This document shows, piece after piece, positions 42,314 to 51,022 of a stretch of 64,000 bases of DNA; position 1 is the first letter of the stretch; every line of letters begins with the position of its first letter. Made by a program: the position numbers and the translations under genes. The DNA is taken from assembly GCA_947463095.1 (NCBI GenBank), contig CANHRE010000001.1, positions 10,719 through 74,718 of the forward strand, given 5' to 3'. The notes below the pieces were generated by a model. It was not told where the DNA came from. It saw only the letters and a list, made by a program, of their open reading frames with translations, and ran no database searches. The stretch comes from Flavobacteriales bacterium (GTDB lineage: Bacteria; Bacteroidota; Bacteroidia; NS11-12g; UBA955).

Positions 42314-42768
42314 TACAGCCCTTTTCTCCTCCGGATTTCAGCCCCCAAAACCCCGATTTCCGGGAAGAACTCGAACACATTTTAAAGGGGCAATACTTCA
42401 TGAAGCATATCGGATTCCAGTTGGAACATGTAGAAAACGGCAAGGCTGAGGGCTATATCGTACTAGGTGAGCAACATTTGCAACAACATGGTTATCTGCA
42501 CGGTGGCGTTAGCGCCACCGTATGCGACTTGGTTATGGGCTTTGCCGCCTGGTCCTTGATACCCAAAGGCTACGGTGTGGTTACCGCAAACCTGAACATC
42601 GACTACCACTATCCCGGGTTAGGCCGCAAGTTATTTGGCCGCGGCAGGGTGGTTAAAACGGGCAATATGCTGCACTTCTGCGAAGCGGAATTATGGCTTG
42701 ATGAAGGTCCGGTGGTAGTGCGCGCCAGCTCCATCATGAGCACCGTTGTCAAACCCCTAAACCCCTAA
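42310..42768 (+). CDS. PaaI-family hotdog-fold thioesterase
   Basis: 152 aa. The motif LHGGVSATVCDLVMGFAAW is typical of PaaI/4HBT thioesterases. Confidence 0.7.
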   Translation: MIQPFSPPDFSPQNPDFREELEHILKGQYFMKHIGFQLEHVENGKAEGYIVLGEQHLQQHGYLHGGVSATVCDLVMGFAAWSLIPKGYGVVTANLNIDYHYPGLGRKLFGRGRVVKTGNMLHFCEAELWLDEGPVVVRASSIMSTVVKPLNP

Positions 42769-44132
42769 GCACCGTTTTGATACTTCTTTAAAAGCAGCAT
42801 CACCTCGCGGCTGCCTGATGCCTTGGCCCATTGCCGAAGCTTTTTATGTTCTTCTCTGTTCAGTCCATTCCAGGCGCCTCGTTCCAACAAGCATTTGCAC
42901 AAGTCTAAATCTGCTTTGCGCACCGCCTCGAACAATGGTGTTTCCCCATTTTTATCGCGTATGTTCACCACAGCGCCAGAGGCCAGCAACTGCTTCACAA
43001 TGGCTGCAGCGCCCAGGATAACAGCATGGTGCAGGGCCGTTAATCCTTCCGCATCCTGGCTGTTTAGGTTTACGCTGCTGCAGCGAAGCAAGTGGTTCAG
43101 CGCTGGCCGGTTCCGCTTCAGCACCAACAGGTGAATTAATGGCAAACCCTGTCCATCGCGCTGATTCAGGTTAAAGCATGTGGTGCTGCATGCCATGGTG
43201 ATAATCGTATCCAGCAGCAGCTGATTGTTGGATTTCGCGGCCAGAAACAATAACTCAGAATCGGTGCCACACAGCAAATCCAAATAGGGTACATACGCGG
43301 CCATGTAGGACCATTGACCGGTGGTAAGGGCATTTTTAAGGTTTGCCTCCGTAAGTATACGCCGCGCCTCAACGGGCAATACCGAAAGCCGTTGAACAGC
43401 ATTCCCGAACAGCCTTAGATCAATATCTGAAGTGTCAACAAATCCGATATGTGGACCGGGAATTAATATTCCACCAACAACACCCTGTTCATCCAGCACC
43501 GCACTTCCAACTGCCGCCTGCGGAAACTGTTCGGCCAGGAACAGTGATTTGGTTCCTTCATCAGCCAAAACCGATAAATCCTGTCGGGTTCCGTCATCCA
43601 TGCAGCAACTCAGAAGAAGATGGAAAGGCGAAGCGCCGAAATTCAGTTTAAACGCCGGCATCCCTGACGGCCTGTCTATTTGAAGCAGCGCATAATTCTC
43701 GTCCATTCCACGAACACCTGTCCAAGCTTCAGCCCTTACGGAAGCAATCCGGAATACCGAAGAATCCGGAATTGGGGACCCCAGCGCGGCTGCCGGAATC
43801 CATACAAGCGCCTGGCCGCTTGTCAGCGCGCTCCGGTGCAGGCTGCTGCCTGCAGTAAGCAGCAAATCAGGAGCAACAAGAAAGGCTGTTCCCAAGGGTT
43901 TGTAGGGATGCTGTTTGGCTGAGGAATATCCTTCATTCCAACGCCATACTCCGAATGCAGGCGGCTTAAATGCCTCAGCAGGATATAGATATCCTGTGGT
44001 ACCGGTGCAGCCAGCAACAGACCTCTTTGGGGAAGGCCAGCCTGAACCGATAGGCGTTGCTTGTTGCGCCAGGCCTGAAGATAAAATCAGACATGCACAA
44101 AGCAGGCAGGAATACCGAAGATACCATTGCAT
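42765..44132 (-). CDS. secreted trypsin-like peptidase-fold domain fused to C-terminal ankyrin repeats
   Basis: The start was chosen at MQWYLRYSCLLCACLILSSGLAQQ, giving a signal peptide. The N-terminal half has chymotrypsin-fold-like GTAFLVAPDLLLTAGSSLH and a VGSAV motif. The C-terminal half has clear ANK repeats (DAEGLTALHHAVILGAAAIVKQLLASGAVVNIRDKNGETPLFEAV...). Confidence 0.55.
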   Translation of the reverse strand: MQWYLRYSCLLCACLILSSGLAQQATPIGSGWPSPKRSVAGCTGTTGYLYPAEAFKPPAFGVWRWNEGYSSAKQHPYKPLGTAFLVAPDLLLTAGSSLHRSALTSGQALVWIPAAALGSPIPDSSVFRIASVRAEAWTGVRGMDENYALLQIDRPSGMPAFKLNFGASPFHLLLSCCMDDGTRQDLSVLADEGTKSLFLAEQFPQAAVGSAVLDEQGVVGGILIPGPHIGFVDTSDIDLRLFGNAVQRLSVLPVEARRILTEANLKNALTTGQWSYMAAYVPYLDLLCGTDSELLFLAAKSNNQLLLDTIITMACSTTCFNLNQRDGQGLPLIHLLVLKRNRPALNHLLRCSSVNLNSQDAEGLTALHHAVILGAAAIVKQLLASGAVVNIRDKNGETPLFEAVRKADLDLCKCLLERGAWNGLNREEHKKLRQWAKASGSREVMLLLKKYQNGA

Positions 44133-44161
44133 ATCGCCACCGGGCACTTGCCCTGAATTTC

Positions 44162-45925
44162 TCAATCCAATAGCACCTGGAGCAAAGGTTGTACCGCTTT
44201 ATCGGCGTTTGCTTCCAGTGTCCATGCCGCCCTACTGACCTTTTCTGGGCGAAGCATGATGGTGCGCATGAGCCCAGCGCGGTTCACAAGCACTTCGGTT
44301 GGCTGATCATTTGTAAGCAGTCGGTTTACCTCTTCTATTGAATTTCCAACGCGGCGCCCGTCAATTGCAACCAGCTCATCCTGCACATTCAGTCCACCTT
44401 TCCAGGCTGGTAAATCGCGTTCAACATATTTCACCATAAGTCTGCCGTTTTCAAAAGCCGTACTGATGCCCAAGGTAGTTTCCGTTTTACCCGGATTCTG
44501 CGCTTTGATTCCCGCTTTGGCGAGTATTCCAGCATAATCGGGTATTTCGGTGCTTTCAACCAGGCCTCGGATTTCAGCGCCAAGCCCAACACCCCCTATG
44601 GCATCAATGGTTTCGTAAAATTCATCATTGCTGAAACCGCGCTCCGGCCTATTGAGGTATTGCTGCCAGAGTGACTTCATCACATCGTCGAGGTTGCGAC
44701 TCCCCTTAGTTCTGGATACAATGTTAGCGTCCAGAAGAAATGCCAGCACCTGCCCTTTCCCATAGTAACTGATGGTCGTATTGCGGCTATTTTCGTTCGG
44801 GCGGTATTCACGGATCCAGGCATCATGGCTGCTTTCTGCCAGCGACTGATAAAACCTTCCGGGACGCTGTTCCAAATCGTTGATGGCAGAGGCCATTTTC
44901 TCCAGATAGGCTTCTCGGGTATAGAATCCGGCTCGACGCAGGATGAGTTCATCGTAATAGCTGGTAATTCCTTCGGCCACCCACAGCATATCGGTATGAT
45001 TTTCCTTGCTGTAGTCGAAGGGCCCCAGAGGTTCAGGCCGGATGCGCTTCACATTCCATAGGTGCAGGTATTCGTGTCCGCATAACCCTAAAAACTGTTT
45101 GTATCGGGAGGGATTATTCCATTGCCAGCGAGGCATCATTACCGTGCAGGAATTGGCGTGTTCCAGACCACCTCCCCCGGCTTCTGTGTTTAACACAATA
45201 AACAGGTAATTCTTACAGGGATGATGCCCGAAAATGCCCGTGGTGGTATCGCAGATGACAGTAAGGTCGCGCACGAAAGTACCCATGTCCTGATTGCCGG
45301 ACCCCACTACGGCCACCGTATGGGGAACACCCTGCACCTTAAAATCAACGGTTTCATAATTTCCGGCGATGAGCGGAGCATCTGCTAAATCATCGTAATG
45401 TTCAAATGAGAATATGCCGGGCTTGAGTTCCGGTAATGCCACATTCATCTGCTTCCAGGCTGCGGGCAAGTGTACTTCGAGTATTCCCGGCAGATGTTTC
45501 ATTTGTTCTACCAGCATAAACACGGAAGTTTGGTGCAGAAATGCCATATCCGCATCAATAAAAGATGTGCGCACCGACCATTCAAATGCATACACCTTAT
45601 AGCGCACAGAGAGTGATTTCAGTCCTTTCACAGGAAACTGCCAGGTGTTCTTGTCCGTTCTTTGCGGTGTTAGCGGCTTCCCATCGGCTTCAGCCTGCAC
45701 CTGCTCCACACTTTTGGCGAACTCACGCAACAGGTAGCTGCCCGGAGTCCATGATGGCATGCGCAGGTCCAGCACCTGCTCCTTGAAACCGCTAAGCTCC
45801 ATACTTACTTCGGCATAATGCGTATGGGGTTCAGGGAAGGAAACACGATATTTTATTTGAGGCGTGGCAAAGTGCTCCATGATGGTCATGCTTGTAATGA
45901 ACAGCGTCAGTAAGGTGCGGCGCAT
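44162..45925 (-). CDS. M61-family glycyl aminopeptidase with C-terminal PDZ domain
   Basis: 587 aa with a signal peptide. The zinc motif is HEYLHLWN. The C-terminal PDZ-like block is LVAIDGRRVGNSIEEVNRLL. It overlaps the downstream gene by 4 nt. Confidence 0.75.
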   Translation of the reverse strand: MRRTLLTLFITSMTIMEHFATPQIKYRVSFPEPHTHYAEVSMELSGFKEQVLDLRMPSWTPGSYLLREFAKSVEQVQAEADGKPLTPQRTDKNTWQFPVKGLKSLSVRYKVYAFEWSVRTSFIDADMAFLHQTSVFMLVEQMKHLPGILEVHLPAAWKQMNVALPELKPGIFSFEHYDDLADAPLIAGNYETVDFKVQGVPHTVAVVGSGNQDMGTFVRDLTVICDTTTGIFGHHPCKNYLFIVLNTEAGGGGLEHANSCTVMMPRWQWNNPSRYKQFLGLCGHEYLHLWNVKRIRPEPLGPFDYSKENHTDMLWVAEGITSYYDELILRRAGFYTREAYLEKMASAINDLEQRPGRFYQSLAESSHDAWIREYRPNENSRNTTISYYGKGQVLAFLLDANIVSRTKGSRNLDDVMKSLWQQYLNRPERGFSNDEFYETIDAIGGVGLGAEIRGLVESTEIPDYAGILAKAGIKAQNPGKTETTLGISTAFENGRLMVKYVERDLPAWKGGLNVQDELVAIDGRRVGNSIEEVNRLLTNDQPTEVLVNRAGLMRTIMLRPEKVSRAAWTLEANADKAVQPLLQVLLD

Positions 45926-45965
45926 GCGTGCAAAATTAAGTAGCTTGCCGGCAATTCAACGGCTC

Positions 45966-46331
45966 ATGAATTTCAGATTGATTGCCTGTGTCCTGATATG
46001 CTTCGCGACTTCCTGCAGTTCGGATAACAACCCACTGCTCAAGCAATGTGAGCTGGAGCTCGACTCCCTGGAAACTGTATTGGCTCAGAACCCCGGCTTT
46101 GCTGCTTCGAACACCAACAGCTTTATGGTATTGCGCGAGCGGATTCACGGCCGGCTGGATGCGCTGAGTAAAGACCAAACCCTAAGTGCTTCAGCGTTGG
46201 AGCAGCGTGATTTACTGGCCATCCGAAGCAGCGTGTTGTTCACCGCGGCCATGGAACAGGCGCTGGAACTGACCCGAAAACAATCAGACAGCCTGAACAA
46301 GCTTCGCAACAGTGCTACATCAGGCAACTGA
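45966..46331 (+). CDS. hypothetical small lipoprotein
   Basis: The start was chosen at MNFRLIACVLICFATSCSS, which ends in a lipobox. 121 aa, predicted helical. Confidence 0.4.
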   Translation: MNFRLIACVLICFATSCSSDNNPLLKQCELELDSLETVLAQNPGFAASNTNSFMVLRERIHGRLDALSKDQTLSASALEQRDLLAIRSSVLFTAAMEQALELTRKQSDSLNKLRNSATSGN

Positions 46332-46349: not shown

Positions 46350-46670
46350 TCAGTCGCCGTACTCCAGCTCCAGCTTTGCGCTTTGCAGTTCGGACCGGGC
46401 GTGTTGATCGCCTAGCCTGGCAGCTGCGGCAATCCCCTGTTCATAAACTGCCATAGCCTGATCCTTTACCCCATCCTTCTCCATCAATTTCCCCAGATGG
46501 TAATAGGTAGCCACATAATCGGGATGTTGTTCCAGCAACCATTCCAGCAGGCGCCTGGCTTCAGTGGTATTGCCTGCGGAAAGATGTTCCTGCGCCAGTG
46601 CATAGTTCAGGAATGGATCCTCGGGTGATTCCTTAAGGAAGCCCAGCAGTTGGATCATGCGCGGATTCAT
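46350..46670 (-). CDS. tetratricopeptide-repeat protein
   Basis: 106 aa. The TPR-like A/Y/L periodicity is visible in LNYALAQEHLSAGNTTEARRLLEWLLEQHPDYVATYYHLGKL. Confidence 0.5.
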   Translation of the reverse strand: MNPRMIQLLGFLKESPEDPFLNYALAQEHLSAGNTTEARRLLEWLLEQHPDYVATYYHLGKLMEKDGVKDQAMAVYEQGIAAAARLGDQHARSELQSAKLELEYGD

Positions 46671-47136
46671 AAGGCAAAACTAAGGGCTTTCCCCGCATGC
46701 CGAAGCGCCTCACCCGAAACAGCATCCATGTGAGCAACAGAATTAATACCATTGCAGTAATGAACAGTTTCTTATATCGTTCCAGTGTGGATTCCTGTTG
46801 ATGTGCCTGTGTTTGTAGTGCGGCTATAGTGCTTTGATGTTGTCGGTCTTTTTCCACGCCTTCCGTATGATGCCTCAGACACAAGGAATCCACCGCGCGC
46901 TTCAGGCTGTCAACCCGGCGATAGGGTGTGGAATCCAACACAAACCAACAGGTGGGCATGGTAATTCCGCTGAACACCGAAGGCGGCAAGGGACAAGGCG
47001 ATGGAAAGTACGGTGGCGAACTGTTTAATACCTGAAACTTCCCCAGCGTGTCTGGTACAACTTCCGCCACCTGTATTTGGCCATTCATGCCTGCGGCGAA
47101 CAGCATCAACATCAGCATCAGCAACAAGTGCTTCAT
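46633..47136 (-). CDS. hypothetical bitopic membrane protein
   Basis: 167 aa. It has an N-terminal signal, a Cys/Pro-rich region and a C-terminal TM helix followed by an RVRRFGMRGK tail. It overlaps its neighbours at both ends. Confidence 0.4.
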   Translation of the reverse strand: MKHLLLMLMLMLFAAGMNGQIQVAEVVPDTLGKFQVLNSSPPYFPSPCPLPPSVFSGITMPTCWFVLDSTPYRRVDSLKRAVDSLCLRHHTEGVEKDRQHQSTIAALQTQAHQQESTLERYKKLFITAMVLILLLTWMLFRVRRFGMRGKPLVLPYESAHDPTAGLP

Positions 47137-48215
47137 TTTCCTGTTTTGTAGTAATTGATGTGAAGTTTGCTGCTTCCTGATTTCAACATGGTACCACTTT
47201 GCTGAATCCTTTGCTCCTGTTGTTTTTCTTCGTGCAACAGTTCATCCAGAAACGCCAGTACTGTGGAAGCAGTGACGCTCACTACGGCGCCGGAAGTAAT
47301 GGCCTCCACGGCAGCAGATTTCAGCAGGTTTGCCGATTGCTGACGGAACAGCTTATTATTGGCAAATAAGTCGCAGGAGATAATACTGTCGCCGGTAACA
47401 GCCACAAAGCCTATATAGCTTGTATCTTCAGCCATCAACTGGTTAAAATGTTGCAAGTAGGCCGGCAGGTCTTTATTTATTTTATCTGATTGGGCAATGG
47501 CGGTATAAGTACCGGTTCCGCTGCCAGTGCCGGCTTCGCGGTTTTTCACGGCTACCTTGCTCCATACCTCTCCCTGATTCTTTTCCACTACGGCGGCCTT
47601 GCGCACTGAAGGAGAAGTCACCCCGAAGGTATTGTTAAAGGTGTATCCGCTGCCGTTGGGTGTCCACCGTCCGCGCTCCACACAAAACACCGGAACCTGA
47701 ACAGGCCCCGAGTTGGGCAGCAGCAACATATCCTTGGCAACCACCCGATCCTGTTTCCCTCCAGTAACGACCTCTCCTGCCAGTACAAGCACGGTATCCT
47801 TGCCTTTGTTCTCGAATACCAGCGTGTTCACCGTTCCACCCTGAAGTTCGCTCACCACCACGGCACCTTTAGTGAGGGCATCTTTAAAACTGGTATAGTT
47901 CCCAAGTCCCCTGTGCGCCTTTACAAATTCAGGTTCCGATGATATCATGTACAATCTGAGGTTCCCAAACGTAAACTTCTGTTCTTCTGCGCTCAACTCC
48001 TGTTTGATTTTAGTACCCTGATCGCCAAAAGCCCAGGCATAGTTTGCATTCGTGGATCCGTTTGCCTGATTGCTGATGCGGTATACAGTATCGGCAGAGG
48101 AAATCTTGTTCTTGAAAAGCTTCAGATCTTCCTTGTTATACTGAGCCTTTGCGCTGCCAGCGGCCATAATGGCACCCAGAAGAAGGAATCTTGACATGTT
48201 GGTGGAATGGTTCAT
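47133..48215 (-). CDS. hypothetical secreted protein
   Basis: 360 aa with a signal peptide (MSRFLLLGAIMAAGSAKAQ). I recognise no catalytic motifs. It is the first gene of a three-gene operon divergent from the LytS/LytTR pair. Confidence 0.45.
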   Translation of the reverse strand: MNHSTNMSRFLLLGAIMAAGSAKAQYNKEDLKLFKNKISSADTVYRISNQANGSTNANYAWAFGDQGTKIKQELSAEEQKFTFGNLRLYMISSEPEFVKAHRGLGNYTSFKDALTKGAVVVSELQGGTVNTLVFENKGKDTVLVLAGEVVTGGKQDRVVAKDMLLLPNSGPVQVPVFCVERGRWTPNGSGYTFNNTFGVTSPSVRKAAVVEKNQGEVWSKVAVKNREAGTGSGTGTYTAIAQSDKINKDLPAYLQHFNQLMAEDTSYIGFVAVTGDSIISCDLFANNKLFRQQSANLLKSAAVEAITSGAVVSVTASTVLAFLDELLHEEKQQEQRIQQSGTMLKSGSSKLHINYYKTGK

Positions 48216-48392
48216 TTTTTCAGAAATATTTGCTCAAAACTGACGGTTCTTTTCCTGGCCTTTTGAACCAATGAGCCAAACAGGCTTTTGAATGAGTCAA
48301 TGTGCCGGATTGGCTGACCAAATACCGAAAGGAAGGTTAGTTTGGTAGGCTATTTTATCATTTAGGTTCAATACACTGATTAGATTTGTGCA

Positions 48393-50264
48393 TTGCTGCG
48401 CTGTAAAATCCTGCTGATGCTTGCCCTTGTGGGTTGTTGCCTGCGTTTAGCGGGCCAGAATAATCCTGTTCCGCGCGGTGCCGGCGAATTGTTACATGAT
48501 GCTGGAACTTATGAAAACACCCAGCCGGGAAAGAGCATGGAGCTGGCCGCAGAAGCGCTTGAACTGGCCTTAAAGGGTAAAGATCAACAGCATATTGCCG
48601 GATGTTACCTGCTGCTTGGCCGATTGCACCTTACCAATGGCAATAAGGAGCGCGCTGCTGAATTACTGGAAAAGGCATCGGAGGGCTATGGGACGCTTCA
48701 AAATGCTGCAGCCAAGGCCGAGGCCGACCGGCTGCTGGCGCTGGCTCTGGAACGTTCCGGCAAATTGGACAAAGCGGCAGAGGTTCAGAAAAACTACATG
48801 AACTCTTCAGCCATCAGCAAAAAGGATAAAATCAGGGCCAGTGGCAAGAATGCGGAATACATGTACCGCAAGGGGCTGAAAAGCGAAGCAATAAAAGAAT
48901 TGGAGCAGAATCTTCCAGAGGTGCAGCGCGACACGGTGGTGAAGCTGGAACTGATGAACCAGCTGCAGGGAATTTATGGACAAACGGGCGACACGTTGGG
49001 AACCATCAGGATGGCTCAGGAAAATATCGAATTCCTGGCCGTCAATAAATCTGCAGATGCCGCCAGCTTTACCTGGAAATTCGGTGAGGCGCTGCTGAGC
49101 AACGGGAGTGTGAGCACCAGCCTGAACATCAACGAGAAACTGCTCACCGGAGCCCTTAATAATGAAAACTATCTGGTAGCCCGTCAGGCTTACCTGAACC
49201 TGGGATTCACCTATGCGCGCAGCAATGATTATCCGCAGGCCATGCGCATGTTCACGGCAGGATACCAAACCGCGGTGCAGCATCAGGATGCTCTTGGTGA
49301 ACAGGAAGCGCTGCTGCGCATAGCAGAAACAGAGGAACATACCGGGAATTACCCGGCTGCACTCAACGCCTACCAGCGCTATACCATGCTGAAAGATTCC
49401 TTCCGGCATTTGGATGTTCTCGCCGAAGTGCGCAAACTGGGGTTGAACGAGCAATTTGCCCGGCAAGAACAGCGCATAAAAACACTGGAAACCGATCAGA
49501 TTAAACGCGACTGGGAACTGCAAAAACAAAAGCAGGCCATCATCATCCTTGGCGCAGCTGTGCTGCTGTTCCTGTTGCTGCTGTTCCTGTTGTTCAGAGC
49601 CCTGAAAGCCAAACAGCAAGCCAACCTTAGCAATCGACTACAATCGCTGCGCAACCAGATGAACCCGCACTTCATCTTCAACTCGTTAAACTCCGTAAAC
49701 CATTACATCAGCCTGCATCAGGAAAGAGAGGCAAACCGTTACCTGAGTAGCTTCAGCACCCTGATGCGTAGTGTGCTCAGCAATTCGGGAAAGGATTTTA
49801 TCAGCCTGCGTGAAGAATTGGAAATGCTGCGCATTTACACGGACCTGGAACAAGCGCGATTCGCCGACAAATTCGACATACGCTGGGATATGGACGAAGC
49901 CCTTCCCCTGGATGAACTACAGGTGCCTCCGCTGCTGCTGCAGCCCTATGTGGAAAATGCAGTATGGCATGGCCTCAGATATCGGGAAAACCGAGGACTG
50001 TTAAGCATTAAGGTATTCATCCAGGACAATCAACTTTGTTGTTTGATCATAGACGATGGCATCGGCAGGAAACGAAGCAGGGAACTGAAAACCGAAAACC
50101 AAAAGCGCAGCACCGGTACCGGATTGAAGAACACGGAAGAACGTATTGTCATTCTGAACAAGTTGTATAAAACAGGAGTTCGGGTGATGATTGATGATTT
50201 AAACGAGGAAGGTGGCACCTTGGTGCGCATCCTTATTCCATTGAAAAAGGTGGAACCCATATGA
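48393..50264 (+). CDS. sensor histidine kinase (LytS/YehU His_kinase family) with an N-terminal extracytoplasmic TPR domain
   Basis: The order is signal peptide, TPR repeats, one TM helix (AIIILGAAVLLFLLLLFLLF), a His_kinase motif LRNQMNPHFIFNSLNSVNHYI, then HATPase_c. Confidence 0.75.
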   Translation: MLRCKILLMLALVGCCLRLAGQNNPVPRGAGELLHDAGTYENTQPGKSMELAAEALELALKGKDQQHIAGCYLLLGRLHLTNGNKERAAELLEKASEGYGTLQNAAAKAEADRLLALALERSGKLDKAAEVQKNYMNSSAISKKDKIRASGKNAEYMYRKGLKSEAIKELEQNLPEVQRDTVVKLELMNQLQGIYGQTGDTLGTIRMAQENIEFLAVNKSADAASFTWKFGEALLSNGSVSTSLNINEKLLTGALNNENYLVARQAYLNLGFTYARSNDYPQAMRMFTAGYQTAVQHQDALGEQEALLRIAETEEHTGNYPAALNAYQRYTMLKDSFRHLDVLAEVRKLGLNEQFARQEQRIKTLETDQIKRDWELQKQKQAIIILGAAVLLFLLLLFLLFRALKAKQQANLSNRLQSLRNQMNPHFIFNSLNSVNHYISLHQEREANRYLSSFSTLMRSVLSNSGKDFISLREELEMLRIYTDLEQARFADKFDIRWDMDEALPLDELQVPPLLLQPYVENAVWHGLRYRENRGLLSIKVFIQDNQLCCLIIDDGIGRKRSRELKTENQKRSTGTGLKNTEERIVILNKLYKTGVRVMIDDLNEEGGTLVRILIPLKKVEPI

Positions 50265-51022
50265 AACCCTCCATACGCGCTCTGATTGCCGACGATGAAC
50301 AGTCTTGCCGGGAAACCCTAAGGCATTATATATCGCGCTATTGCAACCAAATTGAACTGGTTGGAGAAGCGTATGATGTTCGGGATTGTGTAATGAAAAT
50401 CCGCGCCTTAAAACCCGAATTGGTATTTCTGGATGTAGAAATGCCTTTCGGAAATGCCTTTGATGTGCTGGAGCAAACTGCCGGAGTATTGTATAAAACC
50501 ATATTTGTTACTGCCTTCAGCGAATATGCTATGCGCGCCCTGAATGCAAGCGCGTCGTATTATCTGCTCAAGCCATTAAACATTGACGAATTGATTCGCG
50601 CTGTGGAGAAAGTACAGAATCAAGAAGAACAACCCCAGGAGGTTCAGTCCGGCATCATCAGAGAAAACCTGAGCAGCGGGAAAATCCGGAAAATCCTGAT
50701 TCCCACACTAAGCGGTTTTGAAGTGTTGAAGGTGGATGAAATTATCCGCATCAGCGGGAACGGAAACTATACCGATCTGCATTTAAGCGGTCAGCGGCGC
50801 AAAACGGTGAGCCGTGTGCTGAAATATTTCGACGAACTGCTTCAGGCCGATGGCTTTCTCCGGGTGCATAAAAGCCATTTGGTGAATATGGATTATGCCG
50901 TTGCCTGGCATAGAGGCAAAGGTGGTTTTTTAGAACTCAGCGATGGCAGCGAGGTAGAAGTATCGCCGCAAAAGAAGCAGGATGTACTCACACGTTTAGG
51001 TGCAGGACCCGGTGTTAGCTGA
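50261..51022 (+). CDS. LytTR-family two-component response regulator
   Basis: The receiver domain is ALIADDEQ...VFLDVEMP and the C-terminal LytTR DNA-binding domain is LRVHKSHLVNMDY. It overlaps the kinase gene by 4 nt. Confidence 0.85.
   Translation: MKPSIRALIADDEQSCRETLRHYISRYCNQIELVGEAYDVRDCVMKIRALKPELVFLDVEMPFGNAFDVLEQTAGVLYKTIFVTAFSEYAMRALNASASYYLLKPLNIDELIRAVEKVQNQEEQPQEVQSGIIRENLSSGKIRKILIPTLSGFEVLKVDEIIRISGNGNYTDLHLSGQRRKTVSRVLKYFDELLQADGFLRVHKSHLVNMDYAVAWHRGKGGFLELSDGSEVEVSPQKKQDVLTRLGAGPGVS

Follow-up and report, generated by a model that had tools for sequence, protein, structure and literature searches.

Genes of the locus

The locus considered here lies at positions 46350 to 51022 of a 64-kb window, the whole stretch of Flavobacteriales DNA that was analysed, which comes from a metagenome-assembled genome of a freshwater Bacteroidota lineage. 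It holds a histidine kinase and a response regulator, which form a two-component system, and three genes transcribed away from them. We argue on comparative grounds that the conserved unit is three of these five genes. These are the kinase with its TPR sensor, the regulator with its REC and LytTR domains, and the divergent gene for an exported protein of the ARPP-1 family. The evidence throughout is comparative or computational. The genes are as follows.

50261..51022, plus strand: response regulator, REC + LytTR, 253 aa (Pfam)
48393..50264, plus strand: TPR-sensor histidine kinase, 623 aa (Pfam, hydropathy, catalytic motifs)
47133..48215, minus strand: exported ARPP-1/DUF6569 protein, 360 aa (PF20208)
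46633..47136, minus strand: bitopic membrane protein, 167 aa, lineage-restricted (open reading frame, hydropathy, AlphaFold2)
46350..46670, minus strand: small cytoplasmic TPR protein, 106 aa (TPR match)

All five open reading frames are where an initial annotation of this DNA had put them, and the tight overlaps it described in the minus-strand operon are there too. The 360-aa and 167-aa genes overlap by 4 nt (ATGA) and the 167-aa and 106-aa genes by 38 nt. The kinase and regulator genes also overlap by 4 nt. The intergenic region between the ARPP-1 and kinase genes measures 177 nt (48216-48392), not the 178 bp given earlier. There are no paralogous copies of the kinase, the regulator or ARPP-1 elsewhere in the 64-kb window.

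The 360-aa protein belongs to ARPP-1

The initial annotation held that none of the three minus-strand genes has a recognisable function. This does not survive a hidden Markov model (HMM) search. The 360-aa protein plainly belongs to PF20208 (ARPP-1; DUF6569 at NCBI), with a score of 196 bits against a gathering threshold of 27 (E 1.2e-57). The alignment pairs residues 80-338 with profile positions 7-268 of 297. More than 1,200 ARPP-1/DUF6569 homologues were found in this search. The family was described in 2022 by Iyer, Burroughs, Anantharaman and Aravind (Viruses 14:1977; PMC9503650), who first defined it from NAD+/ADP-ribose conflict systems centred on an ADP-ribosylglycohydrolase (ARG). They reported a novel beta-rich fold and an absolutely conserved cysteine and glutamine, which they proposed as active-site residues, and they suggested an activity on sugar moieties (PMC9503650).

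The conserved cysteine and glutamine are present here as C178 and Q155. They sit in two motifs, GGKQDR and FCVExGRW, that are invariant across a 29-sequence alignment. The invariant residues are G152-G153-K154-Q155-x-R157 and C178-V-E180-x-x-R183-W184, and Q214 is invariant as well. Since these polar and cysteine residues are retained, the sequence argues for the same chemistry as in the cytoplasmic family members. By description the fold has a core made of a duplicated beta-meander of four strands, with an inserted beta-barrel. Our AlphaFold2 model has a predicted local distance difference test score (pLDDT) of 86, with a beta-rich block at 86-199 followed by two beta-hairpins, one at 267-284 and one at 341-355. 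The PDB holds no relative by sequence or by fold. In the clade to which the window belongs, the N-terminal part has about 55 additional residues that form a helical segment.

This protein was previously called secreted. It does have a Sec/signal peptidase I signal peptide, ending AKA-Q with cleavage before Q25. The signal ends in A-Q in all aligned homologues, which fits the Q-rule of the Bacteroidetes (PMC5837995). Secretion itself is a different matter. The C-terminal domain of the type IX secretion system has no match in the 360-aa protein, and export to the periplasm is the better description of its probable fate.

The kinase and regulator

The earlier domain calls of a TPR-LytS kinase, a LytTR regulator and a TPR protein all hold in Pfam. 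The regulator matches Response_reg (E 7e-15) and LytTR (E 6e-12). Its phospho-acceptor D58 lies in the context FLDVEMP, and the DDE at 11-13 and K104 contexts are also present. The kinase matches PF06580 (His_kinase, E 5.6e-23), with a weak match to HATPase_c, and its catalytic motifs are intact (NPHF at 424, ENAVWH at 521, DDGIG at 554 and GTGLKN at 575). With REC, LytTR and the Asp on one side and the PF06580 and HATPase_c boxes on the other, the pair is a LytTR-type two-component system. TPR matches span residues ~50-330 of the kinase. Hydrophobic segments at 1-19 (a signal or anchor) and 383-401 (transmembrane) flank the TPR domain at ~20-382. A domain bracketed in this way should face the periplasm, and the topology supports a periplasmic sensor.

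It is worth considering what this pair is not. The LytS/LytR-type systems (LytSR, BtsSR/YehUT, YpdAB and AgrCA-type) share with it the PF06580 and HATPase_c core and the REC and LytTR regulator. Their operators also resemble the one here, where two direct repeats of 10 nt, 11 nt apart, precede the promoter of the target. The sensors differ. LytS, BtsS and YpdA have a 5TM-Lyt sensor, usually with GAF, whereas this is a single-pass kinase with a ~360-residue periplasmic TPR domain. Neither PF07694 (5TM-Lyt) nor GAF has a match in the kinase, which excludes it from LytS proper. The best NCBIfam matches, BtsR (99.6 bits, cutoff 246) and LytR (75.6 bits, cutoff 375), both score well below their equivalog cutoffs. 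Without a 5TM-Lyt sensor, and with NCBIfam scores this low, the pair is not orthologous to LytSR, BtsSR, YpdAB or any other named system. FimS of Porphyromonas gingivalis is likewise a Bacteroidota kinase whose periplasmic TPR sensor precedes a single transmembrane segment. It gives only a weak partial match (NF053520, 27.5 bits against a cutoff of 600), and it has another kinase core family and another type of regulator.

Linkage of the trio beyond synteny

A scan of genome contigs with this protein alone yielded, apart from one distant match, only close relatives that are syntenic throughout. Linkage was therefore examined through exact-protein look-ups and an alignment-based metagenome scan. 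The sample is the best 80 of at least 596 metagenome matches plus nine contig look-ups, with the P0037 locus represented without DNA. A tblastn survey of 93 loci was made for the kinase, the regulator, ARPP-1 and the accessory genes.

The close relatives (L001-L005, 80-85% ARPP identity) say nothing about linkage because their whole neighbourhood is syntenic with the window. The informative loci are the more distant ones. Genes for a TPR + His_kinase protein and a REC-LytTR protein stand divergent from ARPP-1 in P0009 (58% ARPP identity), P0029 (55%), P0024 (48%) and P0037 (39%), and the flanking genes of these four are quite unlike those of the window. The pair is present in every surveyed locus with at least 47% ARPP identity (L001-L005, L007-L011, L014 and L015). 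It is also present in the sister lineage of the window clade (L097-L099, 59%) and in three loci at 38-40% (L020, L025 and L026). It is absent from five loci at 36-42% (L012, L013, L018, L027 and L028). At 35% or below none of the 60-odd loci has it, and their ARPP-1 proteins are mostly also exported or anchored. The trio thus recurs in many uncultured Bacteroidota, from 38 to 85% ARPP identity and in at least nine flanking contexts. Examples of the flanks are alanine dehydrogenase (AlaDH)/M61 in the window, MarR-RND, Usp/TonB, peptidase M15/M90 with SecG-LptE, dnaE, GAPDH and RtcB.

Regulator orthologues are 40-83% identical and adjoin the kinase in all linked loci, while an unrelated LytTR paralogue in L039 is at 31%. 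The catalytic half of the kinase is 47-81% identical among linked loci. The identities of this half, the regulator and ARPP-1 fall together, which is consistent with their inheritance as a unit. The TPR sensor half changes much more quickly: in loci with an ARPP identity of about 50% it is 25-28% identical, against 54-58% for the catalytic half. In a neighbour-joining tree, which is not robust, the clade of the window through L011 is linked in 11 of 11 cases. The same tree has two further linked subclades with unlinked subclades between them.

One can imagine that an ordinary LytTR system merely happens to sit beside an unrelated exported protein. Pairs of a TPR kinase and a LytTR regulator are numerous in Bacteroidota, and some ARPP-1 genes do without the pair. 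We give this scenario next to no credence. Adjacency, orientation and operator position are kept down to 38% ARPP identity and across those different flanks, and it is these comparative data that exclude chance adjacency.

Operator repeats and candidate promoters

Four features lie in the intergenic region.

48291..48300, minus strand: distal operator repeat, TTGACTCATT, at ~-70 to -61 of the predicted ARPP-1 promoter
48270..48279, minus strand: proximal operator repeat, TTGGCTCATT, at ~-49 to -40, with an 11-nt spacer and a 21-nt period
48235..48242, minus strand: candidate -7 box of the ARPP-1 operon, CAGTTTTG, with a predicted transcription start site near 48230
48381..48388, plus strand: candidate -7 box of the kinase/regulator operon, TAGATTTG, a perfect TAnnTTTG match kept in L001-L005

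The LytTR-style direct repeat claimed for this region is real. It occupies 48270-48300 and reads TTGACTCATT-N11-TTGGCTCATT on the minus strand, or AATGAGCCAA / AATGAGTCAA on the plus strand, with 21 nt from start to start. At up to 3 mismatches this is the single match to the repeat pattern in the 64-kb window, where 0.03 would be expected by chance. Known LytTR sites are two 9-11-nt repeats with 11-13-nt spacers (PMC4847170). The 10-nt repeats and 11-nt spacer have this format, and their position is kept in at least 13 loci.

The linked intergenic regions have in common the pattern TT[C/G][A/G]CTCATT-N11-TT[C/G][A/G]CTCATT. Allowing 4 mismatches, this pattern (TTSRCTCATT-N11-TTSRCTCATT) has 21 matches in 854 kb, which is all fetched loci on both strands. 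Thirteen of the 21 share the orientation of ARPP-1 and are placed upstream of it, 54-61 nt from its ATG. In L026 the site precedes a SIMPL gene that heads the operon. A variant half-site, TTCACCAAGT, is found in L020 and L026. The unlinked Bacteroidota loci have no match at up to 4 mismatches.

A promoter can be placed just downstream. The -7 box of Bacteroidota sigma-A is TAnnTTTG at -12 to -5 (PMC9723704). In 14 linked loci a [C/G]AnnTTTG box stands ahead of the ATG by 26-34 nt and follows the proximal repeat at a distance of ~27-30 nt. In the window the candidate box at 48235-48242 predicts a start site near 48230, so that the repeats come to lie at about -70 to -40. With C or G in place of the consensus T, the box would fit a promoter that depends on an activator. 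The upstream position of the repeats matches that used by AgrA, an activator that works from direct repeats just upstream of its promoters (PMC4227749). A sigma-70 promoter and terminator scan was uninformative, as expected for Bacteroidota promoters.

On the kinase side, TAGATTTG puts the predicted start site exactly on the TTG start codon at 48393. Either the kinase mRNA lacks a leader and its start codon is the TTG, or the ATG at 48417 is where translation starts. The kinase may therefore start at the ATG instead.

Two observations concern other loci. The kinase/ARPP-1 intergenic region of L025 (4176-4640) is unusually long at ~465 nt and is full of short tandem repeats of the CCTTATAT(G/T) type. 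There is also a second operator-like pair in L003 (13268-13298, TTGAATCATT-N11-TTGGTGCCTT) and L005 (16710-16740, TTGAATCTTT-N11-TTGGCGCATT). It has the same relative position in both, ~8.7 kb downstream of ARPP-1, and the window has none. This pair may be an additional regulon site in those two genomes.

The two genes behind ARPP-1

The initial annotation proposed a self-contained module of the two-component system and all three minus-strand genes. One half of this stands. The kinase and regulator are linked to ARPP-1, with an operator, beyond the range of synteny. The other half does not, since the 167-aa and 106-aa genes fall away outside close relatives. The check it called for was co-occurrence of the three genes with the pair in related genomes. 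Only ARPP-1 co-occurs generally, and the other two do so in close relatives alone.

The 167-aa protein has a signal peptide, a disordered Pro-rich segment, a long helix running into a transmembrane segment at 124-142 and a short cytoplasmic tail. It has no family in Pfam or NCBIfam. An AlphaFold2 model from 2 sequences is of low confidence (pLDDT 61) and consists of the signal helix, the disordered segment and one long helix. Among 1.84 billion proteins there are 2 representatives, both close relatives, and in the tblastn survey the gene is found only in L001 and L003-L005. The sister lineage has a weak orthologue after ARPP-1 (E 1e-6 and 3e-4). Orthologues are 37-63% identical where ARPP is 80-85% identical. 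What they keep is LDSTPxRRVDSLKRAVDS, the transmembrane segment and the cytoplasmic tail (GKPLVLPxESAHxPTAG). The initial annotation described a Cys/Pro-rich ectodomain. As a functional feature this is not upheld, since the Cys residues are not conserved among the orthologues. By sequence comparison this protein is a lineage-specific, fast-evolving accessory. We considered whether it could be a divergent DUF5683, a protein that has the same length and the same position before the TPR gene in L094. This was rejected on a BLASTP E of 1.1 and no Pfam match.

The 106-aa protein has two to three TPR repeats and belongs to a widespread family of 104-109 aa in Bacteroidota and Rhodothermota with 50-60% identity. 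Its homologues follow parA-parB-DUF5683 in L094 and sit between LemA and a LysM/DPBB protein in L096. In the sister lineage (L097-L099) the TPR gene adjoins dnaE, and an opposite-strand gene lies between it and the ARPP-1 operon. There it is a transcription unit of its own. Members of this uncharacterised family are often the terminal genes of operons that are otherwise unrelated. Judged by these contexts, the 106-aa gene is probably a passenger, a neighbour captured into the transcript in the lineage of the window only.

Partners of ARPP-1 in other lineages

The slot after ARPP-1 is filled differently elsewhere. In L007, L009 and L014 ARPP-1 is accompanied by a ~200-aa protein resembling intradiol dioxygenases (Dioxygenase_C). 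Its genes follow ARPP-1 at L007:7043-7648, L009:8182-8781 and L014:7016-7624, and the proteins have Tat-type signals (RRNFI / RKKFI / RNEFL). Such signals imply export of a folded, probably metal-loaded protein alongside ARPP-1. A second partner is a ~390-aa VWA protein, found downstream of ARPP-1 in L009 (7005-8180) and upstream of it in L016 (510-1706). The two are mutually homologous (E 8e-35). Both are exported and have the DxSxS motif of a metal-ion-dependent adhesion site (MIDAS) and a C-terminal coiled coil. A 407-aa gene in the P0037 contig is probably a further homologue. Since VWA flanks ARPP-1 on either side in different lineages, we regard it as a recurrent second partner. SIMPL accompanies ARPP-1 in L007 and L026, a rhodanese does so in L020, and nothing does in L011. 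The partners in these other linked lineages are all predicted to be extracytoplasmic.

These partners bear on whether the secreted, bitopic and small TPR proteins jointly form an effector cassette, which would make the locus a five-gene module. The three genes overlap and are co-oriented, their arrangement is kept in L003-L005, and the sister lineage has its weak 167-aa orthologue in the right place. Yet the 167-aa protein is missing from all other linked loci and has just those two close relatives among the 1.84 billion proteins. The TPR family is widespread with unrelated neighbours, and in L097-L099 the intervening gene separates it from the operon. Elsewhere the slot behind ARPP-1 is taken by a dioxygenase-like protein, VWA, SIMPL, a rhodanese or nothing. 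We consider a joint cassette unlikely, and as a general unit the five genes are largely refuted by these comparisons.

Another scenario is an anti-phage or other biological-conflict system like the ARG-centred ones. It was from systems of this sort that ARPP was defined (PMC9503650). The 167-aa partner has evolved quickly relative to ARPP, and in L020 a rhodanese gene follows ARPP-1. The gene content does not agree with this scenario. Neither the locus nor its immediate surroundings contain a gene for ARG, Macro, NADAR, REase, HIRAN or WYL. Of the marks of an ARG system (ARG, Macro, NADAR, REase and a rhodanese-phosphatase), the linked loci offer only the plain rhodanese of L020. The describing paper also lists HIRAN and WYL contexts and an exported pair with a PF01522 deacetylase (PMC9503650). 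That deacetylase has no match among the neighbours in the window or in any linked locus, so the exported pair is not what is seen here. PADLOC has no match for ARPP-1, the kinase or the 167-aa protein. The neighbours are housekeeping genes in stable synteny, and an exported ARPP-1 would be away from cytoplasmic NAD+ and ADP-ribose. A conflict system is highly improbable.

Neighbouring genes

The neighbours in the window include AlaDH, an M61 peptidase, an ankyrin protein and a lipoprotein. The open reading frame at 45864-46331 (plus strand) is convergent with the ARPP-1 operon and keeps its position in L003-L005. It probably encodes the lipoprotein, with a lipobox-like LICFATSC if started at an internal Met, and it has no family match. 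An M61 glycyl aminopeptidase with a PDZ domain lies at 44162-45925 (minus strand). Its gene overlaps by 4 nt with the one at 42765-44165 (minus strand), which encodes an exported protein of 466 aa with ankyrin repeats making up its C-terminal third. This pairing of an M61 peptidase with an ankyrin protein is unusual for free-living Bacteroidota.

Proposed mechanism

We argue that the locus is probably a three-gene Bacteroidota signalling module in which the phosphorylated regulator activates the operon of a periplasmic ARPP-1, with the 167-aa protein as an accessory and the 106-aa protein as a passenger. The kinase TPR domain would sense a periplasmic or envelope cue and the kinase would phosphorylate the regulator. 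A regulator dimer would then bind the two 10-nt repeats (48270-48300), at ~-70 to -40 of the weak Bacteroidota-type promoter with its CAGTTTTG box. Once bound it would activate transcription of ARPP-1 and the gene or genes behind it. ARPP-1 would be exported through Sec and signal peptidase I. In the periplasm it may act through a conserved pocket of Cys, Gln, Lys, Arg and Glu residues on a sugar-containing or otherwise reactive envelope molecule. The comparisons show the gene content, the domain membership of the proteins, and the conservation of both the linkage and the position of the operator. From sequence we infer the identity of the operator binder, the direction of regulation (activation), the periplasmic location of ARPP-1 and any enzymatic activity.

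ARPP-1 may also be an input. In this case it would bind the kinase TPR domain from the periplasm, as a co-sensor or feedback partner, in the way that CpxP does for CpxA. The system would induce it, and it would damp or tune the system or present a ligand to it. The layout is that of cpxP/cpxRA of Escherichia coli, where the gene of a periplasmic protein is divergent from a two-component system with the regulator site in between. This is an analogy of layout only, without any sequence or fold relationship, and CpxR is of the OmpR type. Proteins or peptides are the typical ligands of TPR domains. Divergence is far faster in the sensor half of the kinase than in its catalytic half, as expected if the sensor tracks a protein partner, and ARPP-1 is the sole invariant gene of the target operon. 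Against this, the invariant enzyme-like residues are kept just as in ARPP-1 proteins that are cytoplasmic or have no two-component system, which points to an autonomous biochemical activity. A co-sensor role is a real but minor possibility. It is compatible with the activation scenario above, and the two need not exclude each other.

Significance for the ARPP family

The architecture is conventional: a periplasmic operon under two-component control, built around a described but uncharacterised domain. What distinguishes this locus from the family as described is the coupling. The HMM match is strong, the invariant Cys and Gln motifs are the same, and exported versions were already noted by the describing paper. 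The link to a TPR-sensor kinase and LytTR regulator with a conserved operator is outside the contexts listed there. This linkage is described neither in the ARPP paper (PMC9503650) nor in anything returned by full-text literature searches for DUF6569/PF20208 and for Bacteroidota TPR-kinase/LytTR pairs.

We put forward more tentatively that the trio is an undescribed envelope-surveillance pathway of the Bacteroidota. ARPP-1 would be a novel type of periplasmic, Cys-dependent enzyme that acts on a sugar-bearing or damaged envelope component. Interchangeable exported helpers (VWA, the Tat-exported intradiol-dioxygenase-like protein, SIMPL, rhodanese and here the 167-aa protein) would adapt the core to each lineage. 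This fuller picture is possible, and we hold it well short of probable.

The unit of function at this locus is corrected from five genes to three. Uncharacterised TPR-kinase/LytTR pairs are typical of the Bacteroidota and numerous, and one of them is here given an assigned target for the first time. The repeats offer a concrete regulatory element for testing. ARPP-1/DUF6569 is a large family with a unique fold and an apparent active site, and so far it has been discussed only in NAD+/ADP-ribose conflict systems. Here a Bacteroidota clade of exported ARPP-1 appears hard-wired to a dedicated periplasmic-TPR kinase and a LytTR regulator with a defined operator. This would give the family a physiological setting, the envelope and periplasm, with signal-induced expression. 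If the surveillance pathway is real, the activity of the ARPP fold, long unknown, could be tested directly by way of the conserved operator and inducible promoter.

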